In this document: in pieces, positions 13,847 to 54,408 of the stretch
Layout: every line of letters begins with the position of its first letter
Position numbering within the stretch: the stretch's first letter is position 1
IMG/VR virus record: IMGVR_UViG_3300048577_000133
Span: 1 to 64,000 of that record
Direction: 5' to 3' (one strand)
Length of the DNA stretch: 64,000 bases
Source of the DNA: a virus
Made by a program: the position numbers and the translations under genes
Notes under the pieces: generated by a model
Database searches by the model: none
Seen by the model: only the letters and a program-made list of their open reading frames with translations
Told to the model about the DNA's origin: nothing

Positions 13847-14356
13847 TTAATCAGATTTTTCGTTAGATTCTGAAAATTCTTTTCCTGCAAAAAGTTCGGC
13901 AAGTCCCGATAATTGTTTTAGCCTTAGCACTTCGTCGGCATCCATGCCAATGTTTTTCATTATCCAAGCATCGCCCATCCCTGCTTTTGACAGTTCTGAA
14001 ACAATATTTACCATTAAATCAATATCATGCGATCCACGGGCCCGATTATGACGAATGGTAGAAGCCATACGGTTGCTGATGTCTTTTTCAATAACAACAA
14101 CTGGCATCAATCCGTTTTCTCGTTCGTAAATATCGCGGTGTTTAAGCATCACTGTATATCTGTGAAAACCGTCAACAATTTCATACTTATCGTCATCGGG
14201 AAGATGATAACAAACAATAGGCATGGTATAGCCATCTTCTTTAATTGACTGGTATAGTAATTTCATCTCAGGGGGTGCTACTGCATTTGGATTGTAGCTA
14301 TTGGCTTGTATTTTTTCGACAGGTATAGCCTGTACGTTATAAACTGGTGATGTCAT
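13847..14356 (-). CDS. IbrB-like ParB-domain protein (169 aa)
   Basis: IPVEKIQANSYNPNAV...LLYQSIKEDGYTMPIVCYH...YEIVDGFHRY is a ParB N-terminal-domain pattern. Start overlaps the PAPS-reductase-like gene. Confidence 0.7.
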   Translation of the reverse strand: MTSPVYNVQAIPVEKIQANSYNPNAVAPPEMKLLYQSIKEDGYTMPIVCYHLPDDDKYEIVDGFHRYTVMLKHRDIYERENGLMPVVVIEKDISNRMASTIRHNRARGSHDIDLMVNIVSELSKAGMGDAWIMKNIGMDADEVLRLKQLSGLAELFAGKEFSESNEKSD

Positions 14357-15636
14357 AATATTGATCTGTATTTTTCTAACATGTTATTTCGTTTCTCTAA
14401 TTCATATTTGGTAAGTCCAAATCCTAACGTCTTGCAAGCTGTATCATTTTTCATTATTGCTATGCACATGCGTTTGTATGTTGGTAAAAGATTTGGGTTC
14501 TTTATTTCAATTTCATCTAAGTAATCTTTAAAGCGAATTACCCTATAGTCTGTTGTATAATTACGATTGTTTTCTGGAGTACCCAAATCTTCAAATTCGA
14601 TCTGCGTAGAATCAAGTTCGTTGGCAACTTCAGACGGCAATGCTCCACCTTTTTCAAGCCAATATTTAAATGATACCTCTAATTTTCGAATGTAATTTTC
14701 TCGTGTTTCTTTAGGTAATGTATCAAGTAAAAAATACATGTATTGTTTCCATGTAAAATGTGCAGGTTTTTTTATGTTATTCCAACCCATAGCTGTAGTT
14801 CCGCCGTAAAGACCGGAAAAATTAACTCCGTTTACGCGGCCAATCAGTTTTCCCCAATTATTAGGGTCTATTACCTTATACAATTTCAGGCTTTCGGTTG
14901 CGCAATCGTTAAACGGACTTGCAACACGCATGGAGTTTAGTTTAACGCCTGCGCGATACATCAAATCGTACAACCGGTTATAATCAAAACGGAACCGATA
15001 ATTTGCTATCCAAATATCATCAACTTGCCAATCATAAATTGGATAGGCGTTGATAAGATTTGATGTTAAAACAGAGGTGTAATTATTTGATTTATATTCA
15101 TTACGGTCGTCAAATTTATTTACCGCTTTCCAACGGTGCAGGCTTTCCTGGGTGCGAATTCCGATCAAAAAGCAGGTTTTCTTTTCTTTTGATATTACTT
15201 TGCCAAATTTGATATTAAAGTCGTAATCGCTGATTTCGTAATCAAAATTAAACGGAAAATTATCTTCATTGATGCAATTTACAGGAAGATCGCGGCACCA
15301 TATTTCTTTATCTTCCTTTCTCCACGGTTGCCAGTAGTTTTGAAACATGCTTGTAGCACATTGGGCTTTTATAGGAAGACAAACCCAATATTTTGAAACT
15401 TCACTGGAAAGTGATTCAAACGTCCGGGTAACGTAATTAGTTGTTTCCTGATATTGTGCCTCGTAATCCATGTGGTAAACTCCAACCTTATGCAGTTGGT
15501 TAGTTTTACGGGCATAGTTTAACGCAAGATTCATCATTACTCCACTGTCTTTTCCTCCCGAAAAAGATATGATTATCTGCTCAAATTCATTGAATAAAAA
15601 AGCAATTCGCTTAATAGTTGCTTCGTAAACATTCAT
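14353..15636 (-). CDS. IbrA-like PAPS-reductase / PP-loop family protein (427 aa)
   Basis: PP-loop SFSGGKDSGV near the N-terminus, long C-terminal extension, and pairing with a ParB-like gene as in IbrA/IbrB. Confidence 0.75.
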   Translation of the reverse strand: MNVYEATIKRIAFLFNEFEQIIISFSGGKDSGVMMNLALNYARKTNQLHKVGVYHMDYEAQYQETTNYVTRTFESLSSEVSKYWVCLPIKAQCATSMFQNYWQPWRKEDKEIWCRDLPVNCINEDNFPFNFDYEISDYDFNIKFGKVISKEKKTCFLIGIRTQESLHRWKAVNKFDDRNEYKSNNYTSVLTSNLINAYPIYDWQVDDIWIANYRFRFDYNRLYDLMYRAGVKLNSMRVASPFNDCATESLKLYKVIDPNNWGKLIGRVNGVNFSGLYGGTTAMGWNNIKKPAHFTWKQYMYFLLDTLPKETRENYIRKLEVSFKYWLEKGGALPSEVANELDSTQIEFEDLGTPENNRNYTTDYRVIRFKDYLDEIEIKNPNLLPTYKRMCIAIMKNDTACKTLGFGLTKYELEKRNNMLEKYRSIL

Positions 15637-15909: not shown

Positions 15910-17559
15910 TTATAACAATTCAATGTATTTTTTTAATTTGGTTTTGTTCTTCATCAATTCTTTTATTTCGTCAGTTAAATTACCTTTTCGCCGCAAATTT
16001 CCCATAATCCGAGTATCAATTCCTGAATGAGTAAGTAAATCAATGACCAACATTGGTTTTGTTTGTCCGGGTCGGTCAATACGTCCAACCGACTGCTTTC
16101 GATTTAAATAACTAAAAGAATTAGAATAGAAAACAACTTGGCTACTTACTTCCTGAAGACCATTCAATCCGGTACCACCGCTTTGCATTGTCGCAACAAA
16201 GTAAAGGCGTTTTCTTTCGCGGAATAATTGTAATTCGTTGTCGCGATCTTTAGGGTTACGGCCTGTAAACACGGCGCAATTTTCGCGTCCTAAATAATTA
16301 ATTATTGTTTCGATTTCAAAAATGTATTTACAAAAAAACACGGTTGGTTGTGTAAAATCAAGATTTTTAAGCATTAATGGTTTGTTTGATTCCAAGATTG
16401 TTATTTTCCCATCGCGGGTTTTGTGGTACCCTGATGTGATTTGCTGCATATGTGTAAACACTTCAAAAATATCGATTGCTCTCATTTCGTCACGCTCAAT
16501 AATTGTCAATAACCGCTCCTTTTCTGCCTGATAGTATTCTTCCTGTTCGTCAGTAAGATAACAATACTTTGCCGTTTCTGTTTTAGCCGGAAGGTCTAAA
16601 ACTTCTTCTTTCGATACTTGATAAGTATAAGGTTCGAGCAATCCCATTAGTTGATCAAGATTCTTGTAACCAATTATTTCGTCGCCATTACGACCACCCA
16701 TAATTAGGTATTTTTCTTCAAACTTCAGCCAGTTACGAACTCCTATAATCAATTCCGAAAGCATTGCATACTGCATGTACAAGTTATGCACATTTTCGGT
16801 TACTGGCGTTCCTGTCATCACTACCTTGTAACTGCTTTTATCGCACACCATTTTGATCCGCTTGCTACGTTTTGCTATCGGAGTTTTCACCATGTGGCTT
16901 TCGTCAACAATAATCTGAGTTTCATTATCTGCATATTCCAAAGCTTCAAAAACGGTTTTGTCGCTTGAACTCATGCTTTCAATGCCGATCAACTTCCAAT
17001 AGATTCCGGGAGTATTGCACCATAAGTGTATTTGATCGCGGAAATTCTTTTTTGTCGATACGGGAAGGAATACCAATACCTTTTTGATTTGCCCAGCTTC
17101 GTAACGGCTCTGCACAAGGTCAATAACTATCTTACTTTTCATTGTTCCGGTATCGGCATACAAGGCTGATACCTTCATCGAACACATAAACCGGAGCGCA
17201 TCAACCTGGTGCTTTTTGCTTCGAGAATCATACACAGGAATAACGTCATCCTTCAGTCGTTCGTGAAGCGGCACTTTTTTGCGCTCCAGTTCACAATTAT
17301 TGATCAACTCGTGAAATTGACGTTCTATTTCGGCCTTGTAGTTTGCCGCTTGTTGATTATCGTAATAATTTGAATTACGGTCGTTCTCTACCCGGCAAAA
17401 CACCTGAAGGCGATCGTTAACCACCTCGAACCACGCAGCTGTTTTAATTCCTTTTCCATTTTTACCGTATGGGATATACAGCCGCCTGATGCCGTTTTTT
17501 TCTCCGGTAAACAAGCGGCTATATTTAATGCGTGATTGTATGGTTTCAAGGGTATTCAT
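15910..17559 (-). CDS. SNF2-family helicase-like protein with atypical motif I (549 aa)
   Basis: IVDESH (motif II), MTGTPVTEN (III), SGGTGLNGLQ (V) and QSVGRIDRPGQ (VI) are present. Motif I reads YADTGTMKSK instead of GxGKT. Confidence 0.75.
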   Translation of the reverse strand: MNTLETIQSRIKYSRLFTGEKNGIRRLYIPYGKNGKGIKTAAWFEVVNDRLQVFCRVENDRNSNYYDNQQAANYKAEIERQFHELINNCELERKKVPLHERLKDDVIPVYDSRSKKHQVDALRFMCSMKVSALYADTGTMKSKIVIDLVQSRYEAGQIKKVLVFLPVSTKKNFRDQIHLWCNTPGIYWKLIGIESMSSSDKTVFEALEYADNETQIIVDESHMVKTPIAKRSKRIKMVCDKSSYKVVMTGTPVTENVHNLYMQYAMLSELIIGVRNWLKFEEKYLIMGGRNGDEIIGYKNLDQLMGLLEPYTYQVSKEEVLDLPAKTETAKYCYLTDEQEEYYQAEKERLLTIIERDEMRAIDIFEVFTHMQQITSGYHKTRDGKITILESNKPLMLKNLDFTQPTVFFCKYIFEIETIINYLGRENCAVFTGRNPKDRDNELQLFRERKRLYFVATMQSGGTGLNGLQEVSSQVVFYSNSFSYLNRKQSVGRIDRPGQTKPMLVIDLLTHSGIDTRIMGNLRRKGNLTDEIKELMKNKTKLKKYIELL

Positions 17560-19407: not shown

Positions 19408-19977
19408 TTAATCTTTGTACTCCCATTTAAAGCCCCCGGCAGACTTTCTTTTTCCTAAGCATACCTTCTGAATAGAACTAAAGTCAACACCTGTTTCCCT
19501 AAATGCTTCAGTTGTAGAGCCGTAATTTGCAATCAATTCGCCGTTAATCGTGAGTTGATTTACAGATTTACTATTCCAATTATACGATCCTGTTTTGTCA
19601 CTATTTATTGTAGTCCGATCAAACTTTAGTTCGTTTGTTAAATGATCAATGTTTTCCTGATGCGTACACCATTCAAGATTATCTGAACAACAATTCAATT
19701 TATTACCGTCTTTGTGATTACCTTCTGGTAAGTTATTTTGATTTTTCTTAAAAGCAATCAAAACAAGTCGGTGTATCAACATGTTTTTTCTGCATCCATT
19801 GAGTAAGTTAACAAATAAATAACCAGAATTATTTACATTTGGTATTAGTACTTTACCTTTAAAAAATCTGCGTTTACCATCCTTTGAAATAATAACCCGG
19901 TCAAGTGATCTAACTCTTCCTAAATTACTGACTTGATAAAATTTTTCGTATCCTGCTATATCTTTCCAAATTTCCAT
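19408..19977 (-). CDS. HNH homing endonuclease with NUMOD4 N-terminus
   Basis: MEIWKDIAGYEKFYQVSNLGRVRSL (NUMOD4) and GNHKDGNKLNCCSDNLEWCTHQEN (HNH_3). Confidence 0.85.
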   Translation of the reverse strand: MEIWKDIAGYEKFYQVSNLGRVRSLDRVIISKDGKRRFFKGKVLIPNVNNSGYLFVNLLNGCRKNMLIHRLVLIAFKKNQNNLPEGNHKDGNKLNCCSDNLEWCTHQENIDHLTNELKFDRTTINSDKTGSYNWNSKSVNQLTINGELIANYGSTTEAFRETGVDFSSIQKVCLGKRKSAGGFKWEYKD

Positions 19978-20109: not shown

Positions 20110-20298
20110 TTATTTCTGACTTTCAACGCTATCACTTTCAACGCTTTTATGTTCATTTATGCCATTATTGCAGCTTTTTTTGCTAAAAATAGCCTCAAAA
20201 ATCCACATAACGCATAGACAAAAAAAAATAAATAAGAACCCATATCCGAACAACCTCGACCCGGTTTGATGATCTAAAAAATTAAAAAGTGTTTCCAT
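20110..20298 (-). CDS. Small membrane protein (62 aa)
   Basis: TM segment FGYGFLFIFFCLCVMWIF. Confidence 0.4.
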   Translation of the reverse strand: METLFNFLDHQTGSRLFGYGFLFIFFCLCVMWIFEAIFSKKSCNNGINEHKSVESDSVESQK

Positions 20299-20597
20299 TA
20301 CAAGTATAAAAATTTGTGTATTTCTGCCATTCTCATTTTAAACTTGTGTTTCCGGATCAATGCCTCTTTACTGATTTGTTCATCATGAGCATCATCATGA
20401 CACACCCGGCAAAGGCCAATCAGGTTTTCAATGTAGTCTTTCTCATCTGAACCTCCCATACCTTTGTTATCGATGTGATGTACATCAATAATGATTCTTT
20501 TCTCGCAATACTCGCACTTCCTGGGTTCGTACTCCCCCGTTTCCGGGCTATATGCAATGTCAAAGAAATCAAGATATATTTTAGTGTGCCGCTCCAT
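20298..20597 (-). CDS. HNH endonuclease-like protein (99 aa)
   Basis: CEYC...DVHHIDNKG...CRVCHDDAH. Confidence 0.7.
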   Translation of the reverse strand: MERHTKIYLDFFDIAYSPETGEYEPRKCEYCEKRIIIDVHHIDNKGMGGSDEKDYIENLIGLCRVCHDDAHDEQISKEALIRKHKFKMRMAEIHKFLYL

Positions 20598-20969
20598 TTA
20601 CACCGTCTCAAAATAGAACTTTACTCCTTTTCCTGTTTCTACAACAAGTTCGTACTTGCTGCAAAATTTATACTGTGTAGAGTAATTTTTAAGAGAATTG
20701 AGCATAGTTTCAATATTCTGTCTAAATGCCTCAATTGACATTGAGTTTTTAATGATATTACAACTTGGACAACTTGGATTGTAATTTTCTAAAATTTCTC
20801 GTTCTGGATGTTCACACTTCGATTTATCTTTTAAATCACGAACTATTGGTTCAATATGGTCAACGTGCCAACCTTTTTTAAGTTCACACCCACAATAAGC
20901 ACACTTTCCACCATACTTTTCAAAAACAGTGATCCTGTCTCTTTTTGTAATTCTACTGTTTTGCTCCAT
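20598..20969 (-). CDS. HNH endonuclease (123 aa)
   Basis: CAYCGCEL...HVDHIEP...NPSCPSCNIIKN. Confidence 0.75.
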   Translation of the reverse strand: MEQNSRITKRDRITVFEKYGGKCAYCGCELKKGWHVDHIEPIVRDLKDKSKCEHPEREILENYNPSCPSCNIIKNSMSIEAFRQNIETMLNSLKNYSTQYKFCSKYELVVETGKGVKFYFETV

Positions 20970-21529: not shown

Positions 21530-21721
21530 TTATTTGTTATTAAATAACTTTAAACATTTTTTACAGGTTACTTTGTCAAAATCATACGTCATACGCTTTG
21601 TTTCTTCTTCCTGTTTGTCAAACCAATATCCACATTTTGTTGAGAAAAGTTCTTTTTTATTAAATTCCGGATTTTGCTCCCTGAAGAAAAACATGTTTTC
21701 TCCTTTTAAATGAACTGTCAT
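21530..21721 (-). CDS. Hypothetical small Cys-containing protein (63 aa)
   Basis: TAATG overlap with the methyltransferase stop. Confidence 0.45.
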   Translation of the reverse strand: MTVHLKGENMFFFREQNPEFNKKELFSTKCGYWFDKQEEETKRMTYDFDKVTCKKCLKLFNNK

Positions 21722-23472
21722 TATACGGCCACCTTTCTAAAGTACATTTCAATACCCCTGGTATTACTCTCCGTAAGTGCTTTTGCCACATCAGGAACCA
21801 CCGCATTACCGATAAATTTCTTTTGCTCTGTTTGCGTTCCTTCAAGCTTATAACCTTTCGGAAATCCCTGGATACTCAACAGTTCTTTGATGTACAGCAT
21901 TCTCATTTTAATGTCGCTAATCCCGTACGCAAGCATGAAAATTCTGATCTTCTTCATGATCTCACTTTCCTTCTCAAAAATTGGCATAGCAAAAAAGTTT
22001 GAAGTAATGGCCGTAGCTTTATACATAGGTGATTTATCTTGCCTTGCAATAATTACTGGAGAAGGCTTATCAATACTTGAAATACATCCAGCCCATGAAG
22101 GATTAATTAAATAGTGCCATTTTCTATTTGCTGTAATAACACCTAACGGTTGATCTATCCTTTGACCTACATTACTGAAATTGGTGTCCATAATCCATTT
22201 ACTTGCAGTAACCAAATTCTGTTTAGGGTTTGCCGTTATCGTATTGGCCGGATTGTCGATACTTACCGGTTTTGAATTGCCAAATTGCTGGTCAAGAAAA
22301 TTGACTGTTGTAAGCCTCTGTTTTGGGACTCCTGTAAGCGTTGGATTTGGTTGCTCAATACTTCCTAGCTGGCCACCTCCAGTGTAGTAGCTTTGCATAA
22401 ACTGAGCTTCAACCTTCGTAAACCGGTCTTTTGTGCTGACTGTTGGGCATGGGTTTTCAATTGAATGAACATTCTTACCCGTTGAGTAATGAGCGGCCAA
22501 AAATACTGATTTAACAGCAGCAAATCTATTACTCGTTGTAATAACACCAACTGGCTCATTTACCGACCTTACCCTATTTTTGTCATTACCGCTATTGTAT
22601 TGCATAGTAAACAAGTCTTCCCCACCGGCAACAAACTTAACCAACCCGGCATATACGCGCTCATGTGTCTTTTCGGCCCTCTTCTTTATGAAGATGCTTT
22701 TGCCTTCATCTTCCAAATCCAGAACGTCACGAACAGCCTTCCACGGATTCAATCCATTACGGCCACTCTTGTCATGCGTTGGCTTTGGCCACTTTATAGG
22801 CAATCCGTCCTTTGCAAATACCCCGAAATATCTTTCACGGCTGGTATATGCCCCGAAATCAGCCGCGTTAAGTAACCTATAGTCGTGATCGTAACCGTAG
22901 CTCTTTACCGTATTAATCCAACTTACGTAATCGCATCCATTCATTTTTGAAATTGGCCTTCCATTTTCATCAAGCGGCCCCCAGCTCATAAATTCACGAA
23001 CGTTTTCAATGTAAATGTAATCAGGACAAAGTTCTTCAATGTACATGAATAGAGCATGTGCCAATGTCCGGCTATCAGCATCGCGTGGTAAACCTCCCTT
23101 AGCTTTTGAGTAATTGGTACACTCCAAAGAAGCCCAAAGGTTAATAATGCAGCCAGGAAATTGCCTCCTTAACTCATTGACTAACTTTTTCAGCTCAATA
23201 ACTACTTTGAAGTTCCGAACATCTTCAACAAAATGTAGGCAATTCGGATGATTACCGTAATGACTCAACAAGGCGTTGTAGTCGTGATTAACACATGCAA
23301 CTACTTTTGTATTCTTCAACTTAGCTAAATGAATACCGGTTGTCGTTCCACCGGCCCCAGAAAAAAGATCGATCCAGAAAACCATTCGGCCATTCGTTTC
23401 ATCATAGTTGCTTTTCAAATGCAACATCATTGGCTCAATCTGAATCTTTTCAAAAATGTGTTGTGGTTTCAT
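21721..23472 (-). CDS. DNA (cytosine-5)-methyltransferase with six tandem TRD-like repeats
   Basis: Motif I DLFSGAGG, motif IV SLECTNYS (Cys kept, Pro replaced), motif VI ENV, SRERYF, QGFP and GNAV. Between VIII and IX lie six roughly 33-aa repeats of S-I-D/E-x-P-x-x-T/V-I-T type. Confidence 0.85.
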   Translation of the reverse strand: MKPQHIFEKIQIEPMMLHLKSNYDETNGRMVFWIDLFSGAGGTTTGIHLAKLKNTKVVACVNHDYNALLSHYGNHPNCLHFVEDVRNFKVVIELKKLVNELRRQFPGCIINLWASLECTNYSKAKGGLPRDADSRTLAHALFMYIEELCPDYIYIENVREFMSWGPLDENGRPISKMNGCDYVSWINTVKSYGYDHDYRLLNAADFGAYTSRERYFGVFAKDGLPIKWPKPTHDKSGRNGLNPWKAVRDVLDLEDEGKSIFIKKRAEKTHERVYAGLVKFVAGGEDLFTMQYNSGNDKNRVRSVNEPVGVITTSNRFAAVKSVFLAAHYSTGKNVHSIENPCPTVSTKDRFTKVEAQFMQSYYTGGGQLGSIEQPNPTLTGVPKQRLTTVNFLDQQFGNSKPVSIDNPANTITANPKQNLVTASKWIMDTNFSNVGQRIDQPLGVITANRKWHYLINPSWAGCISSIDKPSPVIIARQDKSPMYKATAITSNFFAMPIFEKESEIMKKIRIFMLAYGISDIKMRMLYIKELLSIQGFPKGYKLEGTQTEQKKFIGNAVVPDVAKALTESNTRGIEMYFRKVAV

Positions 23473-25003: not shown

Positions 25004-25942
25004 TTACTTTGTCACTCGTTGATAGTCAAATATAATAACACGTTCTGGATTCTTTACCTCAGTAGGAGAACCCTTTCTATTACGAATCGAAAACAACAAT
25101 TTAAAAAAATCATTTGAAGGGTATTTTGTACAAAGCATTTCAATTTCTTCATCAGTAAATTTAAATTCCTTTTTCAAAATAATTCTCATTCGTTCCTGAT
25201 CTTCAGAGCTGTTAACTGGAGGAATTTCTACAACTTCATTTTGTTCTGCTTCAACAATCGATACAATCATGAATTTAACCGAAACAATATTTCGGCCCAC
25301 CTTTATAGGCTGATAGTCTATTTTGATTCCAGTCTTTTCATTTATCGTTTGTTTTGATGGTTCCAAAACACGCTTTTTAAAGTCATTGAATTCTGAATAT
25401 TTCCCTGGGTGAATCATCATTCTTGAACGAAGATCCTCAATGCTTAAAACAATAGTTTTTACCCGTTTATTCTTGATCTGACAAATTAAATCCCAAATTT
25501 CATGTACATATACGCTTTGAAATATGGAACTGCTTAAAAGCTGTTTAGTGTATTGTTTGCCATGAAGTTTGACAAAATGATTTTTTGCCATGTTGGTAAG
25601 GTAAAACCGAACACCCATGTTGTTGTGTAGAAAAACAGTCTCTCCTATCAAGCTGTCAATACTCAAACCTTCGCTGGCAATGTCAACAACCTCAATAGAT
25701 TTCATTGTTCGAAATACCTGCCTGAATTGTTCAAAATTGGTCACTGTTATACCCATAAGCTCCGATATTTCCCGAAGCTGAAAATCTATAAAATCAATAT
25801 CACTATTCAGCTTAATCTTTGTCAGGATAACATTCAAAACGTTTCGTTGGGCCGCTGTCAAATGCTTTGGACTATTTATATAATCGTTACTTTTCGCAAT
25901 GTAACGTTTTGGTTTTGGTGTGTCTAGTGTTTGTGCTTCCAT
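25004..25942 (-). CDS. Rep_3-family plasmid replication initiator
   Basis: YIAKSNDYINSPKHLTAAQRNVLNVILTKI and YSEFNDFKKRVLEPSKQTINEKTGIKIDYQPIKVGRNIVSVKF match the Rep_3 (PF01051) pattern. Iterons lie upstream. Start taken at ATG 25942. Confidence 0.85.
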   Translation of the reverse strand: MEAQTLDTPKPKRYIAKSNDYINSPKHLTAAQRNVLNVILTKIKLNSDIDFIDFQLREISELMGITVTNFEQFRQVFRTMKSIEVVDIASEGLSIDSLIGETVFLHNNMGVRFYLTNMAKNHFVKLHGKQYTKQLLSSSIFQSVYVHEIWDLICQIKNKRVKTIVLSIEDLRSRMMIHPGKYSEFNDFKKRVLEPSKQTINEKTGIKIDYQPIKVGRNIVSVKFMIVSIVEAEQNEVVEIPPVNSSEDQERMRIILKKEFKFTDEEIEMLCTKYPSNDFFKLLFSIRNRKGSPTEVKNPERVIIFDYQRVTK

Positions 25943-25996
25943 GAGTGTAATTTTAACAAATACATTTCTAATAATCAATTGTATTTTATTAACATG

Positions 25997-26024
25997 CAAC
26001 AAATATGCAATTACAATTTTGTGA
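25997..26024 (-). promoter_or_regulatory. Degenerate copy of the promoter motif upstream of rep
   Basis: caacaaatatgcaattacaattttgtga. Confidence 0.4.
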
Positions 26025-26783: not shown

Positions 26784-27554
26784 TTACACGTTTACATGAT
26801 TAATTGATTTACTTAAAACAAGGTTTACGAATTCGCTGTAATCCTTTGCCCCATTGCTTTCTGGCGCATATTCAAAAATAGATTTTTTTTGTGTTATCGC
26901 TTCGCTTATCGCAATATTCCTGCGGATCATGCTCGAAAAAACCCTGTCACCATATTGCTCTTTCAGGATATTTATAATGTCCCGGTTTAAAACTGTACCC
27001 TGGGTCATGGTTAAAAGAATCCCTGAAATGTCAATCGTACTGTCCGACATTTCCCTGATGAGAGCCAATACATCAGAAAGCTTTGCCAATCCTTTGTATG
27101 GCAGCAATTCTGCTTGCATAGGTACATAAACCTCATTCGACGCAATAAGAGCATTTAGTGTGAGAACACCAAGCGACGGCGGGCAATCAATCAAAACAAA
27201 GTCAAAACCGTCTATCTTTTGCAGGATCTTCTTCAGAACTAAATCCCTCGAAGGAATTGAATTCATTTCCGTTTCGGCCCCTGCCAGATCAATCGAACTG
27301 GGCAGGATGAAAAGATTTTCAGTTACTTTTAACGGGGTCGGGTTCTTTGCCTTCATGGTCATGTAGTGATACATGTTTTTGCCTTCAATTGTGCTGCTTT
27401 CAGAAATTTCAAGGCTATCAGTTAAGTTGGCCTGAGCATCCATATCAACCAGTAAAACTTTCTTCCCGGCATTGGCCAAACCATAACCCAGGTTAAGGGT
27501 TGTAGTTGTCTTTCCGGTACCGCCCTTGTGCTGGGCAATGCTAATTACTTTCAT
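26784..27554 (-). CDS. parA: ParA-family partition ATPase
   Basis: Deviant Walker A KGGTGKTTTTLNLG, DMDAQANLT and VLIDCPPSLG. Confidence 0.9.
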   Translation of the reverse strand: MKVISIAQHKGGTGKTTTTLNLGYGLANAGKKVLLVDMDAQANLTDSLEISESSTIEGKNMYHYMTMKAKNPTPLKVTENLFILPSSIDLAGAETEMNSIPSRDLVLKKILQKIDGFDFVLIDCPPSLGVLTLNALIASNEVYVPMQAELLPYKGLAKLSDVLALIREMSDSTIDISGILLTMTQGTVLNRDIINILKEQYGDRVFSSMIRRNIAISEAITQKKSIFEYAPESNGAKDYSEFVNLVLSKSINHVNV

Positions 27555-30750: not shown

Positions 30751-32337
30751 TTAATCTTCGTAAACTTCTACCCCTTTCCCCTTGCGTCGCTCTGTTCCTT
30801 TCTTCTTTGTATCTGTTTGTTTCGGGAGTGCCCAGCCTTTTATTTCGGCTACCTTTCTGTTGAATTTTTCCCAGACTTTTTCATCCTTGAATTCAAAGTG
30901 CATGGTCCCCTTTTTATATCCTCGAACCCGGAAGAACCCCCATTCATACCATTGGCCCCATTCGCGGCCAGTACTGCTAATAATTACTTTTATACCTTTT
31001 TTTTCTAACAAACTTTTAACAGCACTTTGCGCCTGTTCTACATTTTGATAGCTGTACTCATATCCACCCAATAAAGTTCCGTCTTCCCTCTTTAAGTGGA
31101 ACGGGTAACTAAAATAGTTTCTAAGCGGGATCTGATTTTCGTATTTTTCTCCAGTCAACAAACAAAGTGCTTTTATAATGTCGTCCATATGGTCACCACG
31201 TTCATAACGAATTTTCATTGTTTCGCTGGGCCACCTGGTGTCATATTCGCACATGTACGGGTGAATAAACCTCCTGTTAACCTTGTAATCGCTGTTTGTT
31301 TTCCATCCTTCACCTCCTGAATGGTTATCGTATGAATAACCGCAAATTCGTTCAAATGCTTCAACCAAAACCCCATTTAAACGGCTTACGTGTGTACCGG
31401 CAATCATTTCAATCATCAGGTAAACATTCTTTACAGTGAACGGTACATTCGATTGTTTTTCAATAAAAGCGTTCAGGTCTGCAATCACTTTCTGAGTGAC
31501 GTATTTATCCATGTTCATTTTATTGAAAACTGACCGCCAAGCCGATTTTTGAAGTTGCTTTTTAAATGTTTCCCGATCTATTTTATTATACAGGTTATTC
31601 CGGCTTGTTGCGTGTGCTCCAAACTCAATACCAAGACCAGCACTGATAGGATTTATCAGATCATTGATTGACTTTGATACCTCCATAACCGAATCAAACA
31701 TTTTTACGGCCCCAACATACCTATTTACAATATTTCTGATTTCTGAATACTGCATTATCCCGTTATTCTGGGCCTCTTCTTCTTCTGTCATGTCGAAATA
31801 CCCGTCAAACTCAGTTTCAGATGCTTTACGGGGCTTGAATAGGCGAATAAGGCCAACTTCTACACCTGTCTTTCTTTCTGCTTTTGAAAATACATCTCCC
31901 AGGTTTTGATAATTGCCGTTTTCGTCAGCAATTTTTTTCAATTGCTCCCGGGTCCTGAACCTGGCATTTGCCAGAGTTTCCCAATTGCACAATGCAACGA
32001 TCTGGCAACCTTCCGGGGCAATGTTCCACGCATGTATTATGTGTTTCTCATCGGCAGAAAATGGCGGGTTCATGATGATGTAATCAATGTGGCTGATCTC
32101 ATGTGCTTCAACTTGCAAAAAGTCTGTCCTCAAAAACCGGCATTTTTGCCCGACAATACTCGCTAATCGTTGATCTATCTCACAGGCCATAACATCGGCC
32201 CCGAATGTTTGAAGATAGTCAACTATATTACCAGAACCTGCTGACGGCTCCAAAACTTTTTTTTCGTGTAAATCGATCCCGGCGCACATCGTTTCAATAA
32301 CTGACAACGGGGTAGGATAGAAGTCTGAATTAAACAT
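30751..32337 (-). CDS. N6-adenine DNA methyltransferase (gamma-type order) with large C-terminal domain (528 aa)
   Basis: FYPTP, motif I VLEPSAGSGN and motif IV IIMNPPF. The roughly 350-aa C-terminal extension resembles the DUF4942-type domain seen with such MTases. Confidence 0.8.
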   Translation of the reverse strand: MFNSDFYPTPLSVIETMCAGIDLHEKKVLEPSAGSGNIVDYLQTFGADVMACEIDQRLASIVGQKCRFLRTDFLQVEAHEISHIDYIIMNPPFSADEKHIIHAWNIAPEGCQIVALCNWETLANARFRTREQLKKIADENGNYQNLGDVFSKAERKTGVEVGLIRLFKPRKASETEFDGYFDMTEEEEAQNNGIMQYSEIRNIVNRYVGAVKMFDSVMEVSKSINDLINPISAGLGIEFGAHATSRNNLYNKIDRETFKKQLQKSAWRSVFNKMNMDKYVTQKVIADLNAFIEKQSNVPFTVKNVYLMIEMIAGTHVSRLNGVLVEAFERICGYSYDNHSGGEGWKTNSDYKVNRRFIHPYMCEYDTRWPSETMKIRYERGDHMDDIIKALCLLTGEKYENQIPLRNYFSYPFHLKREDGTLLGGYEYSYQNVEQAQSAVKSLLEKKGIKVIISSTGREWGQWYEWGFFRVRGYKKGTMHFEFKDEKVWEKFNRKVAEIKGWALPKQTDTKKKGTERRKGKGVEVYED

Positions 32338-44294: not shown

Positions 44295-44831
44295 CTAAAT
44301 ATTTTGTTGCTTTAAAATTTCAACTTTTTCATATTTTTCTTTAAGTTTTGTTATTCTGCTGTCAAGTTTAGATTCGTTTGAAATTTCAAGTGTTGTTTTT
44401 ATTTTACCATTTAGCAAAAGAAACAATCGAACTCCAGAAGTTGGATTATTTCTTACAATTGGTTGTTCGGAATGAGTAAACTCTTCTGACCATTTTTTTT
44501 CTCTTGCTGCTTTCTTTTTGCGTTCTTCAAGCAATTGTTTTAGTTGTTTTTTTCGCGCAAGAACTTTTTTACCTTCCTCAATAAACCCAAAAATTGAACA
44601 CGCCTGAACCTTACGGCCCCTTTTACCAGCTTGTTTAATTCTTGTGTCCTTATTTTTTTTCTTCAGATTCAAAGATTTTAAATACTTTCTTATCGAATCT
44701 GATGTTCGTCCCATTTCAATAGATAATTCATTGAATGTTTTATCTTTATAATTAGCTCTCAAATATTCTTCTTCCAAAGAACTCCAAGGTTTATATTTAT
44801 TGATACATTCCATATTGCTAGAATAAATCAA
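44295..44831 (-). CDS. Hypothetical basic protein, possible Myb/SANT-like HTH (178 aa)
   Basis: WSSLEEEYLRANYKDKTFNELSIEMGRTSDSIRKYL. Confidence 0.5.
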   Translation of the reverse strand: MIYSSNMECINKYKPWSSLEEEYLRANYKDKTFNELSIEMGRTSDSIRKYLKSLNLKKKNKDTRIKQAGKRGRKVQACSIFGFIEEGKKVLARKKQLKQLLEERKKKAAREKKWSEEFTHSEQPIVRNNPTSGVRLFLLLNGKIKTTLEISNESKLDSRITKLKEKYEKVEILKQQNI

Positions 44832-46332
44832 TTTCTAAATTTACGCCAAATTGCTCATTAATCTCATTAAGCAATTTAGCTGTATCAATAGCAAAATCAC
44901 CAGCAATTGAAGTTACAATTTCAAATGATTCACTATTTACTTGTAATCCTTTTAGCATGAAAGCCTGTAGCGTAAATTCGAGCTCTTTAATCGTTTTATC
45001 TCCTGCATTTTTAATGTTGTGATAAACAGTATTAATACAAGCAATCCGATCATTTAATTGATCTTCATCAATTGTTGTATAATTTGGAGCTGTCATCCAA
45101 TTCCTTGCTTCTGCAATTTCAATCCTGTCAGAAAGTGGTAATGCAAGAAACAAACTGATAACGTTTGCAATTCGAAAACCTCTCGGAATACCATTAAATT
45201 CGTTAATAGTAACCTCGCGAACTACGTTTCCAAGCAAATCATTTACAAATTTTATTTTCGCTTCTTTAAGGGGTTTTGCATCAGGATTTTGTTTTTCAAT
45301 TTGTTTTTCTCCCTGTAGCAATTTAACTTCTTTGTTGTATTCATTGCGCTGATCATCAGAAAGAATATCAACATACCGGCCAACTTTGCCAAAACTGTCA
45401 ACGATCAATGCAATTGACTGCCTGGTATGATTCTTTACTGCCTCTTTGGGAATTTGAATAAATTCTGAAAGTAACCGGACGCCTTTTTCTTGCCGGTCTT
45501 TTTCAGACAACCACCTGTCAGATACTTTTATTACTTCAACACCAAGACCTTCCCAACTTTTTTTAAGGCTTTCAATGTGATTGACAACTTTAGACTGATA
45601 ACAATTTTTGTCAAAACAAATATCTGAAGCCTCATATCCTTCAAAAAGCCTGTTTGTGCTACCTGATCTTTTTGTACAATCAGTACAAGCCCCGGCACCT
45701 AAAAGCAATGATTCATCATTTACCATAAAAGGAGCATTTGCAAGTTTTAAATTAAAATGCTTTTTAATTAACTCCCTTAGTTCATTTAATGAAAATCCAT
45801 CTCCCCACATTTCAAAAAGTTCTTTTTGATCAGTTGGTGTTAATCTGATTAATTCCTTTGCGTGCGAAACCTGAAGAATTCCATCCTGTAGCTTATTTAC
45901 AAATTCAGGAATTAGCAAACTTAAATTAATACGATCGTAGACATATTTTAATGACCGCCCAATACGGTCCGATAATTCTTCAATTGTAAATCCACGATCT
46001 TTTAATTCCAGCAAAGCTTGCATTTCTTCATAGGCAGTAAGATCACGCCTCTGAATGTTTTCTGTAAGATGAATAATTGTTTCTTCATGCTCAGTAAGAT
46101 TTTCAAAAACCTTTGCATCGATCGTCTTCATTTTATTGACTACGCAGGCTCTTAATCTACGCTCTCCATACAGTAAGCGGTACTTTTTACCATCTGGAAT
46201 GATTCCAATCGGTTGGATAAGACCTACTGATTTGATACTGGCTGCAAGCTCCTGAATCGCTTCAGGGATAAATAACTTTCGAGAATTGTTAGGTACAACA
46301 ATTTCATTAATACTGATTTTCTTCAGTTCCAT
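44818..46332 (-). CDS. Large ParB-domain protein (504 aa from ATG 46332)
   Basis: ISINEIVVPNNSRK...ELAASIKSVGLIQPIGII...YRLLYGERRLRA. Confidence 0.7.
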   Translation of the reverse strand: MELKKISINEIVVPNNSRKLFIPEAIQELAASIKSVGLIQPIGIIPDGKKYRLLYGERRLRACVVNKMKTIDAKVFENLTEHEETIIHLTENIQRRDLTAYEEMQALLELKDRGFTIEELSDRIGRSLKYVYDRINLSLLIPEFVNKLQDGILQVSHAKELIRLTPTDQKELFEMWGDGFSLNELRELIKKHFNLKLANAPFMVNDESLLLGAGACTDCTKRSGSTNRLFEGYEASDICFDKNCYQSKVVNHIESLKKSWEGLGVEVIKVSDRWLSEKDRQEKGVRLLSEFIQIPKEAVKNHTRQSIALIVDSFGKVGRYVDILSDDQRNEYNKEVKLLQGEKQIEKQNPDAKPLKEAKIKFVNDLLGNVVREVTINEFNGIPRGFRIANVISLFLALPLSDRIEIAEARNWMTAPNYTTIDEDQLNDRIACINTVYHNIKNAGDKTIKELEFTLQAFMLKGLQVNSESFEIVTSIAGDFAIDTAKLLNEINEQFGVNLEIDLF

Positions 46333-46367
46333 ATTTTCCGGTTTTAGTGTAAATTTTATATTTGAAT

Positions 46368-46444
46368 ATATGTATAACATATACTGCAAAAGTGGAATAC
46401 ACGGCTAAAAGTGGAAAATATTTCCGCATTTAAGCCGCATTTAA
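46368..46444. repeat. Palindrome plus two pairs of direct repeats upstream of the ParB-like gene
   Basis: ATATGT-ATA-ACATAT (46368-46382); AAAAGTGGAA at 46388 and 46407; CCGCATTTAA at 46424 and 46435. Confidence 0.6.
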
Positions 46445-52299: not shown

Positions 52300-54408
52300 C
52301 TAAAATAATTGCAAAGTTTTTGTTTCACTGTTTACATGATTAAATGATTTAGATTTTAATACCTCGTATTCAGGAATTTCAGCGTTGTCCGATTTTAAAT
52401 TGCTTCCAACGATAAGCTTTGTCAAATCATCAACCATGTTGGTTTCAATTTCTCCACTACTACCGGTGGCTGCTTTACCTGCCTGTCGTTTTGCATCGAT
52501 AATACTGTACATGTGATCATCAACCGTATCGCGGCCTAATAAGTAATAAATATTTACCATGTCTTTTTGTCCAATACGGTGAATCCTGTCCTCTGCCTGA
52601 TCTTCCATCGCTGCCGTCCAGCTCAATTCAAGCTTTACCATTTTTGAGGCCGCTGTCAAAGTGTGGCCGGCATATCCCTTTTTATAGCTACAAACGATAA
52701 TACGGTACTTTTCATCGTTCTGGAACAACTTTTTATTCTTGTCAATTTCTTCCGGGGTATTGTCGCCGTATATGGTCAAAACATTCGGGAATAATTCTTT
52801 TATCTTATTGATAGTGTTCTTGTACCAACAGAAAACCACCAGTTTTTCATGTTCAATAATTCTACCTGCAAAGTCCTTGAATGCTTCAAATTTTCCCTCA
52901 GAACTTATCTGAGCCAATACCCTGAACCTGGAAAGAAGTTCAGCTCTCATACTTGATGCGATATTTTCCGGATCAACTTTTTGACTTGCTAAATAATCCT
53001 GAAGCGATATAAACGCGTGATCGTACTCGGCCCTGTTGGATATGTCGATGTGAATAATCTGTCTTAATTTATCAGGTAAATCTTTTAATACCTGGAATTT
53101 TTCACGTCTTATAAAACATAGCGAACGCAATTTAATGTTCAGCGCGGCCAGATCGGAATTTCCTGAGTTGTTATTTCCACTGTCGAAATAGCCTTTCTTC
53201 ATATCTTTAGCGGCTTTCACAAATCTATACATACCTCCGAACTCATCAATTCTATTTGATAGTTCGAGCAATGAAGCAATGTCCTGAGCGGTGTTAACAA
53301 ACGGCGTTCCAGTTAGCGGAAATACATGCTTTTTACCCTTTGTTACCGCTCTGACGGTTTTGTATCTTACTGTTTTGTGGTTCCTCAATTCATGAGCTTC
53401 GTCAATAATCACACACTTGAATATCTCGTGCATTTTGTTCATGATTACCGACTTCCTTACCTTTCCTTTATTTGCTCCTTCCTTTATCTCAACCTCTTTA
53501 ACTTCATCACAAAAAAGCGTTTTAACTCCATCATAGTTAATAATAGCAAAATCGCACATGCCTAAATTCACAAAGTTTTCAAGGCTCTTTATGTTTTTCT
53601 GATTAAGCAACAACGGTTTTTTGTTTGTGAATTTCTTCACTTCGTCGTACCAGTTACCCATAAGCGATTTTGGACATATAACCAATACCGGAAAAGCATT
53701 TAACCCATAAGCTGCGCCTATGCCTTGAATGGTCTTGCCTAGTCCCATATCATCAGCATTGATACACGATTCGTTTTTCATCATGTAGTCAATACCTGAA
53801 CTCTGAAATGGAAAAGGTTTTAGTTTAAAAGGTATGTTCAATTCTATTTCTTCAGCACTATATGAAGCTTCGTAGTTATTTTCAATCCCGTTGAACATGC
53901 GTTGTGCCGACGAACCAATATTGAAATTGTTCTTTTCGGCAAATGCCTTTAGTTCTTTTGTTGAAGTCAACGGAAAAAACCACTGTTTTGAATCAGGCGA
54001 ATATTTTCCATCCGGTACCGCTTTCACCTGTGCAACCAACAAGCTGCTGTATGAAAACTCGACAATGTATTTTTCGCCATTGTAAGCAACCGATTTTGAA
54101 ACTTGATTATGGAATTGCTGATAACTCTGAGTCTGTGCAGCAAGTTTAACCGGTGGAACGGTGCTAAATTCAAATCCAACTCTTTTAAGTATCGTTGAAT
54201 ATCCTTTTAGGTAGTTGTATAGCCTGAAAGCCTCCTGCTCGGTCATAACCGGGTTATGCCTTACCTTCTTTAAAAATTTTGCTGTGTTTTCTGAAAGTGA
54301 ACTAACAGAAAGAATGTTGCGTTCAAAAAGGTTTCTGTACGCCTCCAGTGCTTTTCTTAACTCCCGGTGTGTAACGGTTGTGTAAGTCGTTTGTGTGTTT
54401 TGTTCCAT
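52300..54408 (-). CDS. SNF2-family helicase (702 aa)
   Basis: DDMGLGKTIQ, IIDEAHELRN, LTGTPFVN and QAEDRIHRIGQ. Confidence 0.9.
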   Translation of the reverse strand: MEQNTQTTYTTVTHRELRKALEAYRNLFERNILSVSSLSENTAKFLKKVRHNPVMTEQEAFRLYNYLKGYSTILKRVGFEFSTVPPVKLAAQTQSYQQFHNQVSKSVAYNGEKYIVEFSYSSLLVAQVKAVPDGKYSPDSKQWFFPLTSTKELKAFAEKNNFNIGSSAQRMFNGIENNYEASYSAEEIELNIPFKLKPFPFQSSGIDYMMKNESCINADDMGLGKTIQGIGAAYGLNAFPVLVICPKSLMGNWYDEVKKFTNKKPLLLNQKNIKSLENFVNLGMCDFAIINYDGVKTLFCDEVKEVEIKEGANKGKVRKSVIMNKMHEIFKCVIIDEAHELRNHKTVRYKTVRAVTKGKKHVFPLTGTPFVNTAQDIASLLELSNRIDEFGGMYRFVKAAKDMKKGYFDSGNNNSGNSDLAALNIKLRSLCFIRREKFQVLKDLPDKLRQIIHIDISNRAEYDHAFISLQDYLASQKVDPENIASSMRAELLSRFRVLAQISSEGKFEAFKDFAGRIIEHEKLVVFCWYKNTINKIKELFPNVLTIYGDNTPEEIDKNKKLFQNDEKYRIIVCSYKKGYAGHTLTAASKMVKLELSWTAAMEDQAEDRIHRIGQKDMVNIYYLLGRDTVDDHMYSIIDAKRQAGKAATGSSGEIETNMVDDLTKLIVGSNLKSDNAEIPEYEVLKSKSFNHVNSETKTLQLF

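Follow-up and report, generated by a model that had tools for sequence, protein, structure and literature searches.

The window analysed here is a 64,000-nucleotide (nt) stretch of viral DNA, positions 1 to 64,000 of IMG/VR record IMGVR_UViG_3300048577_000133, and the feature under study is a gene for a predicted C5-cytosine DNA methyltransferase that carries six short repeats in tandem. The gene coincides exactly with an open reading frame (ORF) at 21721..23472 in the ORF list, which lies on the minus strand, starts with ATG and encodes 583 aa followed by a stop codon. A first-pass annotation, made by a model from the sequence, had placed the gene at these positions; its extent stands, and its strand is corrected here to minus, the plus-strand translation of the same interval being riddled with stops. 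A GGAGG ribosome-binding site lies 8 nt upstream of the ATG, and the N-terminal sequence MKPQHIFE is common to the window protein and its full-length homologs. The window also encodes portal, protease, major capsid, terminase and baseplate proteins, with all genes on one strand; the portal, major capsid, terminase and baseplate genes bear out the earlier description of the methyltransferase as phage-borne.

The protein matches the Pfam profile PF00145 well above its cutoff (E=3e-28, 99.5 bits against a cutoff of 22) and the phage family phrog_116, annotated 'DNA methyltransferase' (E=3e-70). Its score against NCBIfam TIGR00675 'dcm' is 77.5, below the cutoff of 100.65, and it is therefore best regarded as a divergent member of the C5-methyltransferases. 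The sequence matches in the PDB are all C5-methyltransferases (3g7u, DNMT1, HhaI and HaeIII), with CmoX (8yf3) as a weak match. Aligned to 3g7u, DNMT1, HhaI and HaeIII, the N-terminal catalytic and S-adenosylmethionine (SAM)-binding domain with motifs I-VIII covers aa 31-280 (22633..23382; this and all other window genes below, with their protein features, are on the minus strand). Motif I, the SAM-binding FSGAGG (23347..23364), aligns with FSGVGG of 3g7u, motif VI is the ENV at aa 156-158 that includes Glu156 (22999..23007), and motif VIII is present as SRERYF, with R212 and R214. Motifs IX/X, DIKMRML..ELLSIQGFP...IGNAVVP, lie at the C terminus (aa 504-583, 21724..21963) and align to DNMT1 and 3g7u; QGFP occupies aa 535-538 and GNAV aa 555-558, with Asn556 kept at the position of HhaI N304. 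Motifs I, VI, VIII and IX/X, by which membership of the PF00145 superfamily was judged, are thus all in place, and the first-pass view that motifs I, VI, VIII, IX and X are standard was correct (FSGAGG, ENV, SRERYF, QGFP, GNAV). Motif II departs from the usual sequence, in that CVNHD aligns with AVEID of 3g7u and the Glu is replaced by Asn.

Two sets of homologs, 270 members in total, were read, namely the 120 closest sequences and 150 diverse representatives. Among the 120 closest homologs (alignment A1), E117, C118, E156-N157-V158, R212 and R214 are invariant, and the same residues are invariant in the mixed 150-sequence alignment A4 except for E117, which is conserved in at least 90% of the sequences. 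The ENV motif is thus invariant in both A1 and A4. The window gene is accordingly predicted to encode a C5-cytosine DNA methyltransferase whose catalytic residues are intact.

An unusual residue of the catalytic core is in motif IV, which reads SLECTNYS (aa 115-122, 23107..23130), with the catalytic Cys118 following Glu117 instead of a Pro. The ASLECTNYS segment aligns with GGPPCQGFS of 3g7u and with PPCQSWS of M.HaeIII, and Cys118 falls on the nucleophile; the earlier reading, that the Cys is kept and the Pro lost, is thereby confirmed. The motif SLECTN[YF]S recurs in 119 of the 120 closest homologs. Across the 150 diverse representatives, motif IV is ECT in 120, DCT in 5, ECI in 4, NCT in 2, and ECV, NCV and PCP in one each, with 16 sequences unmatched; homologs from E. 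coli phage Eeyore and from a Burkholderia phage carry SPDC. Glu, Asp or Asn next to the Cys, instead of the Pro of Pro-Cys, is nearly always found among the 270 members, and its retention throughout the family means that the change is no signal of inactivation. The first-pass annotation had called this motif non-canonical and consistent with a lack of activity. That assessment is not supported: Glu/Asp-Cys is the rule of a very large family and so speaks against inactivity instead of for it, and the altered motif IV is, as judged from these alignments, a conserved family trait under selection rather than a product of decay.

The variable region (aa 281-483) consists of six repeats of 28-34 aa, whose cores start at aa 303, 337, 371, 404, 438 and 466 (22045-22566), with a spacing of 34/34/33/34/28 aa. 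Each unit was identified with a unit hidden Markov model (HMM). Unit 1 (type H, aa 281-314, 22531..22632) has the core PVGVIT, and unit 2 (type B, aa 315-348, 22429..22530) has PCPTVS. Unit 3 (type E, aa 349-381, 22330..22428) combines the loop YYTGGGQ with the core PNPTLT, unit 4 (type A, aa 382-415, 22228..22329) the loop DQQFGNSKP with PANTIT, and unit 5 (type C, aa 416-449, 22126..22227) the loop TNFSNVG with PLGVIT. Unit 6 (type D, aa 450-483, 22024..22125) has the core PSPVII at the canonical position, so that the array reads H-B-E-A-C-D. These cores are forms of the TL motif of the target-recognition domains (TRDs) of C5-methyltransferases, for which the consensus (YFW)X(RK)X5P(STCA)PT(ILV)(TASV), 10-50 aa before motif IX, has been published, and residues around this motif contact DNA and set specificity (PMC2413257). 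The core of that consensus is matched exactly by unit 2 and loosely by the other five units, and unit 6 lies ≈45 aa ahead of motif IX, within the published distance.

The repeats stand well above chance. When an HMM was built from five units, the sixth scored above 500 of 500 shuffles, and this is true of every unit; the relaxed TL pattern P..[TV][ILV][TASVI] has 6 matches in the protein, where 5000 shuffles give 0.22 on average and never more than 3. No tandem repeat was found in the array at the DNA level, and the duplications that gave rise to the units are therefore old. In a profile-profile alignment (hhalign), unit 1, KNRVRSVNEPVGVITT, falls on the DNA-contacting TRD core of M.HaeIII over 16 residues; in a longer alignment, 20 residues of the HaeIII TRD core pair with DLFTMQYNSGNDKNRVRSVNEPVGVITT of unit 1, and NRVR..NEP is common to both. 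The first-pass annotation had listed six repeats of ≈33 aa and called them TRD-like. All six of its quoted peptides are present, each with a TL-motif core, and 'TRD-like repeats' is, on the strength of these cores and of the alignment of unit 1 with M.HaeIII, a fair description.

Neither the repeats nor the motif IV is peculiar to the window gene, which, by sequence comparison, is one member, with the architecture H-B-E-A-C-D, of a large family. We found more than 8000 homologs among clusters at 90% identity; when clustering is at 50% identity, 1843 clusters match with E<1e-30. Relatives are encoded in at least 596 IMG/VR contigs and in 337 GenBank phage records, the latter including phages of Bacteroides, Porphyromonas, Cellulophaga, Tenacibaculum, Escherichia, Pseudomonas, Burkholderia, Gordonia and Mycobacterium. 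The phage 'DNA cytosine methyltransferase' family PHROG 116 is the window protein's own family, with no essential difference between them, and its annotation is generic only. Its named members include those of Bacteroides phage BS-TP2, Porphyromonas prophages, Cellulophaga phage phi4:1, E. coli phage Eeyore, Burkholderia phage BgManors32, and Gordonia and Mycobacterium phages, with an (E/D)-C motif IV. The window protein is 28-49% identical to PHROG 116 phage proteins over more than 90% of the length (phi4:1, 45% over 88%), and the number of TL units is 7 in BS-TP2, 7 in Eeyore, ≈8 in BgManors32 (10 raw pattern matches, some overlapping) and 2 in phi4:1.

The array is where members of the family differ from one another. 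An iterated unit HMM finds 3-10 units per protein in close homologs and 1-10 in diverse representatives, and protein length grows by ≈30 aa per unit (r=0.85). The ≈800 units collected cluster into ≈12 types, every one of which has its own loop signature that is at least 90% conserved across orthologs; examples are DQQ(Y/F)GxSKP in type A, YSGGGQ in type E, DYQYKS in type G and TNFxNxG in type C. The core types always follow the order B-(G)-(E)-A-C-D. Gain, loss and permutation (FH versus HF) affect types F, H, I and J at the N-terminal end of the array. Catalytic domains that are 63-78% identical to that of the window protein (mostly 70-78%) bear the arrays BCD, FBEAD, BGACD, BGEACD, HBEACD, HFBGEACD and FHBGEACD. 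In certain far longer members, P0223 (1213 aa), P0218 (966 aa), P0214 (939 aa), P0149 (880 aa) and P0221 (866 aa), the array begins at aa 420-740, which points to large additional N-terminal regions or fusions. No description of the family's tandem TL units or of its Glu/Asp-Cys motif was found in the literature.

Tandem TRDs that confer multiple specificities are known from the enzymes of Bacillus phages SPR, phi3T and rho11s, whose relatives share a core and differ in their units (PMC8936443). The swapping of units on a constant core in the window family resembles that set, and M.SPRI, M.Phi3TI, M.Rho11sI, M.SPBetaI and M.H2I are likewise phage-encoded orphan C5-methyltransferases. They also place PxxT(L/V/I)T TL units in tandem between motifs VIII and IX, with two units in the SPbeta enzyme (RVYSPEGLSPTLTTMGGG and ENGEPAFTVNTIDRHG), four in that of rho11s and six in the window protein, and the occurrence of this kind of unit in genuine multispecific enzymes also makes the label 'TRD-like repeats' apt. 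The Bacillus-phage enzymes have 3-5 specificities. The two groups differ in several respects. The Bacillus-phage enzymes have the canonical P-C in motif IV, whereas the window enzyme has E-C; its units, at 28-34 aa, are shorter, they reach higher numbers (up to 10 within the family) and they fall into ≈12 types; and the hosts are Bacillus in one case and, to judge by the taxonomy of the nearest named homologs, apparently Bacteroidota in the other. A BLASTP comparison of the window protein gives E=1.7e-4 with the SPbeta enzyme and 0.04 with that of rho11s, over ≈110 aa of the core only. The parallel with the Bacillus phages drawn in the first-pass annotation therefore stands for the tandem TL units (2, 4 and 6) and fails for close kinship, for which there is only a core-level BLASTP match of ≈1e-4. 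The window family is, on these comparisons, a parallel invention in a separate lineage. The monospecific enzymes M.HaeIII (GGCC) and M.HhaI share the fold and catalytic residues of the window enzyme; they have one TL unit in place of six, and relative to them the window enzyme has Pro changed to Glu in motif IV and Glu to Asn in motif II.

The first-pass annotation had proposed modelling the structure to see whether each repeat forms a TRD-like unit, and two models were made. With the 120 close homologs as input, AlphaFold gave a predicted local distance difference test (pLDDT) score of 35-55 over the repeats; with the diverse 150-sequence alignment, the mean pLDDT was 84 and the predicted template modelling (pTM) score 0.76. 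In the latter model, the catalytic domain is mostly above 90, and the catalytic loop (aa ≈111-140) has 10-residue block means of 66-82. Within the array, units A and D are modelled well (80-93) and unit C less so (60-72), with H and B at 57-68 and E at 47-55; unit D reaches 85-93, and unit A has a value of 55 at aa 381-390 and of 80-85 at aa 391-420. A Foldseek search of the PDB returned C5-methyltransferases only, matched through the catalytic fold, and is uninformative on the repeats. Its best matches are DNMT1, MET1 and ZMET2, which are large-TRD enzymes, and the whole of HhaI is covered with a target-normalised TM-score of 0.67-0.69. The PDB matches include no structure of a C5-methyltransferase with several tandem TRDs.

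We consider multispecific self-protection by a modular six-unit array to be plausible and our best guess, held tentatively, as the first-pass annotation had also suggested. The plausibility comes from the placement of unit 1 on the HaeIII TRD core, from the 2-4 similar units of the Bacillus-phage enzymes, from the exchange of units on equally similar cores, and from the phage context, in which homologs lie in replication modules free of restriction-enzyme Pfam domains and the window has two further methyltransferases. On this reading, the protein would be an active phage orphan C5-methyltransferase that uses Cys118, Glu156 and Arg212/Arg214 with SAM in standard covalent catalysis. The array would comprise six mini target-recognition units, each made of a β-strand, a type-specific polar or Gly-rich loop and a TL motif of the form (D/N/E)xPxxT(I/V)T, which probably derive, by ancient duplication, from the one TRD core that ordinary C5-methyltransferases have. 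A single catalytic core could then act on two or more short sequence contexts in phage DNA during its replication, and together with two other methyltransferases of the phage it would shield the genome from several host restriction systems. Related phages, by gaining, losing and permuting unit types, would retune which sites are protected. Within the array, the variable units H and E are probably the specificity modules and B-A-C-D a scaffold to which the canonical TL unit, D, belongs, given that B, A, C and D are near-universal and that A, D and, less so, C are better modelled. Six units may therefore not equal six specificities.

A number of results weigh against multispecific recognition. 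Among the 120 close homologs, 110-114 have each of the units B, A, C and D, and A, D and, less so, C are the better modelled, a pattern more in keeping with a fixed structural small domain than with interchangeable TRDs, and the member in Cellulophaga phage phi4:1 has just two units, so that two units may be needed to make a single TRD. The N-terminal units 1-3 are modelled with low confidence (pLDDT 47-68), which leaves their fold and any contact with DNA conjectural. At the sequence level, the unit HMM matches the Bacillus enzymes at E=0.03 or worse, which is not significant, and a profile of the 32-residue unit, which is too short for the purpose, found no methyltransferase among PDB sequences. 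The TRDs of the Bacillus-phage enzymes, at ≈40 aa, are longer than the window units. In the literature we found no family member with a measured specificity and no characterised precedent for either the Pro-to-Glu change in motif IV or the Glu-to-Asn change in motif II.

Several of these points also speak for the main rival, a serious one if on balance doubtful, in which the enzyme has a single specificity and the six TL units form one composite TRD within an enlarged small domain, as in DNMT1 or MET1. Only one unit, probably D, would then sit at the flipped base, the others would add contacts to the backbone or flanking bases, and the gain or loss of units would alter or lengthen one site without adding independent ones. 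The near-universal B-A-C-D core in its fixed order, the good models of A and D (pLDDT 80-93), the two units kept by minimal family members, the short units (28-34 aa) and the large-TRD enzymes DNMT1, MET1 and ZMET2 at the top of the Foldseek matches all fit such a domain. A single tight fold is, however, difficult to reconcile with the loss, gain and permutation of types F, H, I, J, G and E on equally similar cores, and the N-terminal units show no confident packing in the AlphaFold model. Each type also has its own strongly conserved polar loop, as would be expected of independent DNA-reading modules. Independence could go further than in the multispecific reading that we favour: ≈12 kinds of 30-aa mini-TRD, each with a short sequence of its own to read, might act as combinatorial cassettes, used in sets of 2-10 on one Glu-Cys core, which we hold to be unlikely. 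Less likely is a version of this on the pattern of transcription activator-like effectors (TALEs), with each unit devoted to a single position of a long site.

The remaining alternatives concern what the enzyme does to DNA rather than how many sites it reads. It might be a low-specificity, possibly processive cytosine methylase whose TL units are generic backbone grips, so that most cytosines, or those in a certain dinucleotide, are modified. The many copies of the TL motif, whose Thr contacts the DNA backbone in HhaI, would suit such a role, as would the GC-rich 4-mers, which are not depleted in the window, and phage orphan methyltransferases of very relaxed specificity do exist (the adenine enzyme M.EcoGII, PMC5778455; GpC enzymes, PMC8256090). 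The conservation of type-specific loops at 90% or more across orthologs instead suggests that the units read particular bases and do not simply bind DNA, and we think low specificity quite improbable. Still less probable is a different chemistry, either the transfer of a group other than methyl by this fold with its acidic residue before the Cys, as an enzyme using carboxy-SAM (Cx-SAM) does, or a hypermodification together with a PP-loop enzyme of the PAPS (3'-phosphoadenosine 5'-phosphosulfate) reductase and DUF3440 kind. The natural precedent is the phage enzyme CmoX (PDB 8yf3), a cytosine C5-carboxymethyltransferase with the C5-methyltransferase fold, which has SPPC, an Arg at the HhaI N304 position and a co-encoded CmoA (PMC12783734). 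CmoX turns up as a weak sequence match to the window protein and as a structure match, and the changes in motifs II and IV are unusual enough to invite the comparison. The window protein, however, has SLEC and Asn556 (in GNAV) where CmoX has SPPC and Arg, and no CmoA-like Pfam match was found in the 21 window ORFs scanned; a CmoX-like carboxymethyltransferase was rejected on these diagnostic residues. As for a partner enzyme, the window has a PAPS-reductase (PP-loop) and DUF3440 protein gene at 14353-15636, and in E. coli phage Eeyore a PAPS-reductase-like gene overlaps the start of the C5-methyltransferase homolog. Against this, a PAPS-reductase homolog lies within 10 kb in 0 of 80 related IMG/VR loci, and no such gene stands beside the homologs in phages Haddon, BgManors32, phi4:1 and BS-TP2. 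A functional link between the two enzymes as a feature of the family was rejected on these counts. Finally, the loss of the Pro from Pro-Cys, which is regarded as near-universal in characterised C5-methyltransferases, might mark a catalytically dead, methyltransferase-like DNA-binding protein. This is scarcely credible, as thousands of members keep Glu/Asp-Cys with little or no variation and ENV, RxR, FxGxGG and GN are intact alongside it; a dead protein would not keep them all, and their joint conservation contradicts inactivation.

If the units are independent modules, the family would represent the most extensive natural modular recognition of DNA targets in a methyltransferase, and phages of Bacteroidota, Proteobacteria and Actinobacteria would share in it a widespread means of countering restriction. 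The family would reopen the old question posed by the Bacillus-phage enzymes, that of tandem TRDs alternating at a single active site, and would offer small (≈30 aa) swappable cassettes for the engineering of methyltransferases. Were the full cassette version true, one enzyme could methylate up to ≈10 unrelated motifs, many more than the 3-5 of the Bacillus enzymes, and phages would shuffle cassettes to reprogram their protection. Were the units instead to form one composite TRD, this would be an ordinary though large family of phage methylases. The family-wide replacement of Pro by Glu/Asp in the Pro-Cys motif is a second point that enzymologists can test directly. A family member is also found in E. 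coli, where 13 of 5426 complete genomes carry a prophage gene for an Eeyore-type protein (645 aa, SPDC, 7 TL units) beside that for a phage N6-adenine methyltransferase; one example is at 1752912-1754849 of NZ_CP081762.1. This would make a convenient native test system.

The phage carries three methyltransferases in total. The other two are a DUF4942-domain protein of 528 aa that matches PHROG 'DNA methyltransferase' families (30751-32337) and a 260-aa N6/N4 methyltransferase (PF01555, 34332-35114). Three HNH endonuclease genes lie just downstream of the C5-methyltransferase gene (19408-19977, 20298-20597 and 20598-20969) and match phage homing-type HNH families. Both here and at those homolog loci that were examined, the methyltransferase gene is flanked by phage replication genes or by small ORFs of unknown function. 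No restriction-endonuclease match was found in the genes adjoining the methyltransferase, either in the window or at those loci, and the enzyme is therefore an orphan. Genes for a Rep3 initiator (25004-26002), ParA (26784-27554) and ParB (44818-46389) stand alongside the head, tail and terminase genes, which gives the element the look of a phage-plasmid. A Bacteroidota host is suggested by the named homologs nearest to the window methyltransferase, all from genomes or phages of that phylum. The phage genome also has two genes for SNF2-family helicases (15910-17559 and 52300-54408).

We also counted short palindromes across positions 1-64000. ATGCAT, GATATC, CTGCAG, AGATCT and GCATGC are absent, with 5-14 occurrences expected of each. 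GGCC, GCGC, CGCG and GATC are as frequent as expected, and CCGG is in excess (214 found, 155 expected). These counts are weak evidence for self-protection, and they fit avoidance of some sites together with methylation protection of short GC-rich ones. CTGCAG is reported to be a common methylated motif in Bacteroides (PMC10333322).

Two further observations concern the ends of the methyltransferase gene. Its stop codon overlaps the ATG of a downstream ORF for a 63-aa Cys-rich protein (TAATG, 21719-21723), an arrangement that suggests translational coupling of the two. At the other end, the upstream segment 23473-23530 contains, besides the GGAGG, the element TATATTTG, which resembles the Bacteroidota -7 promoter motif, the consensus of which is TAnnTTTG.

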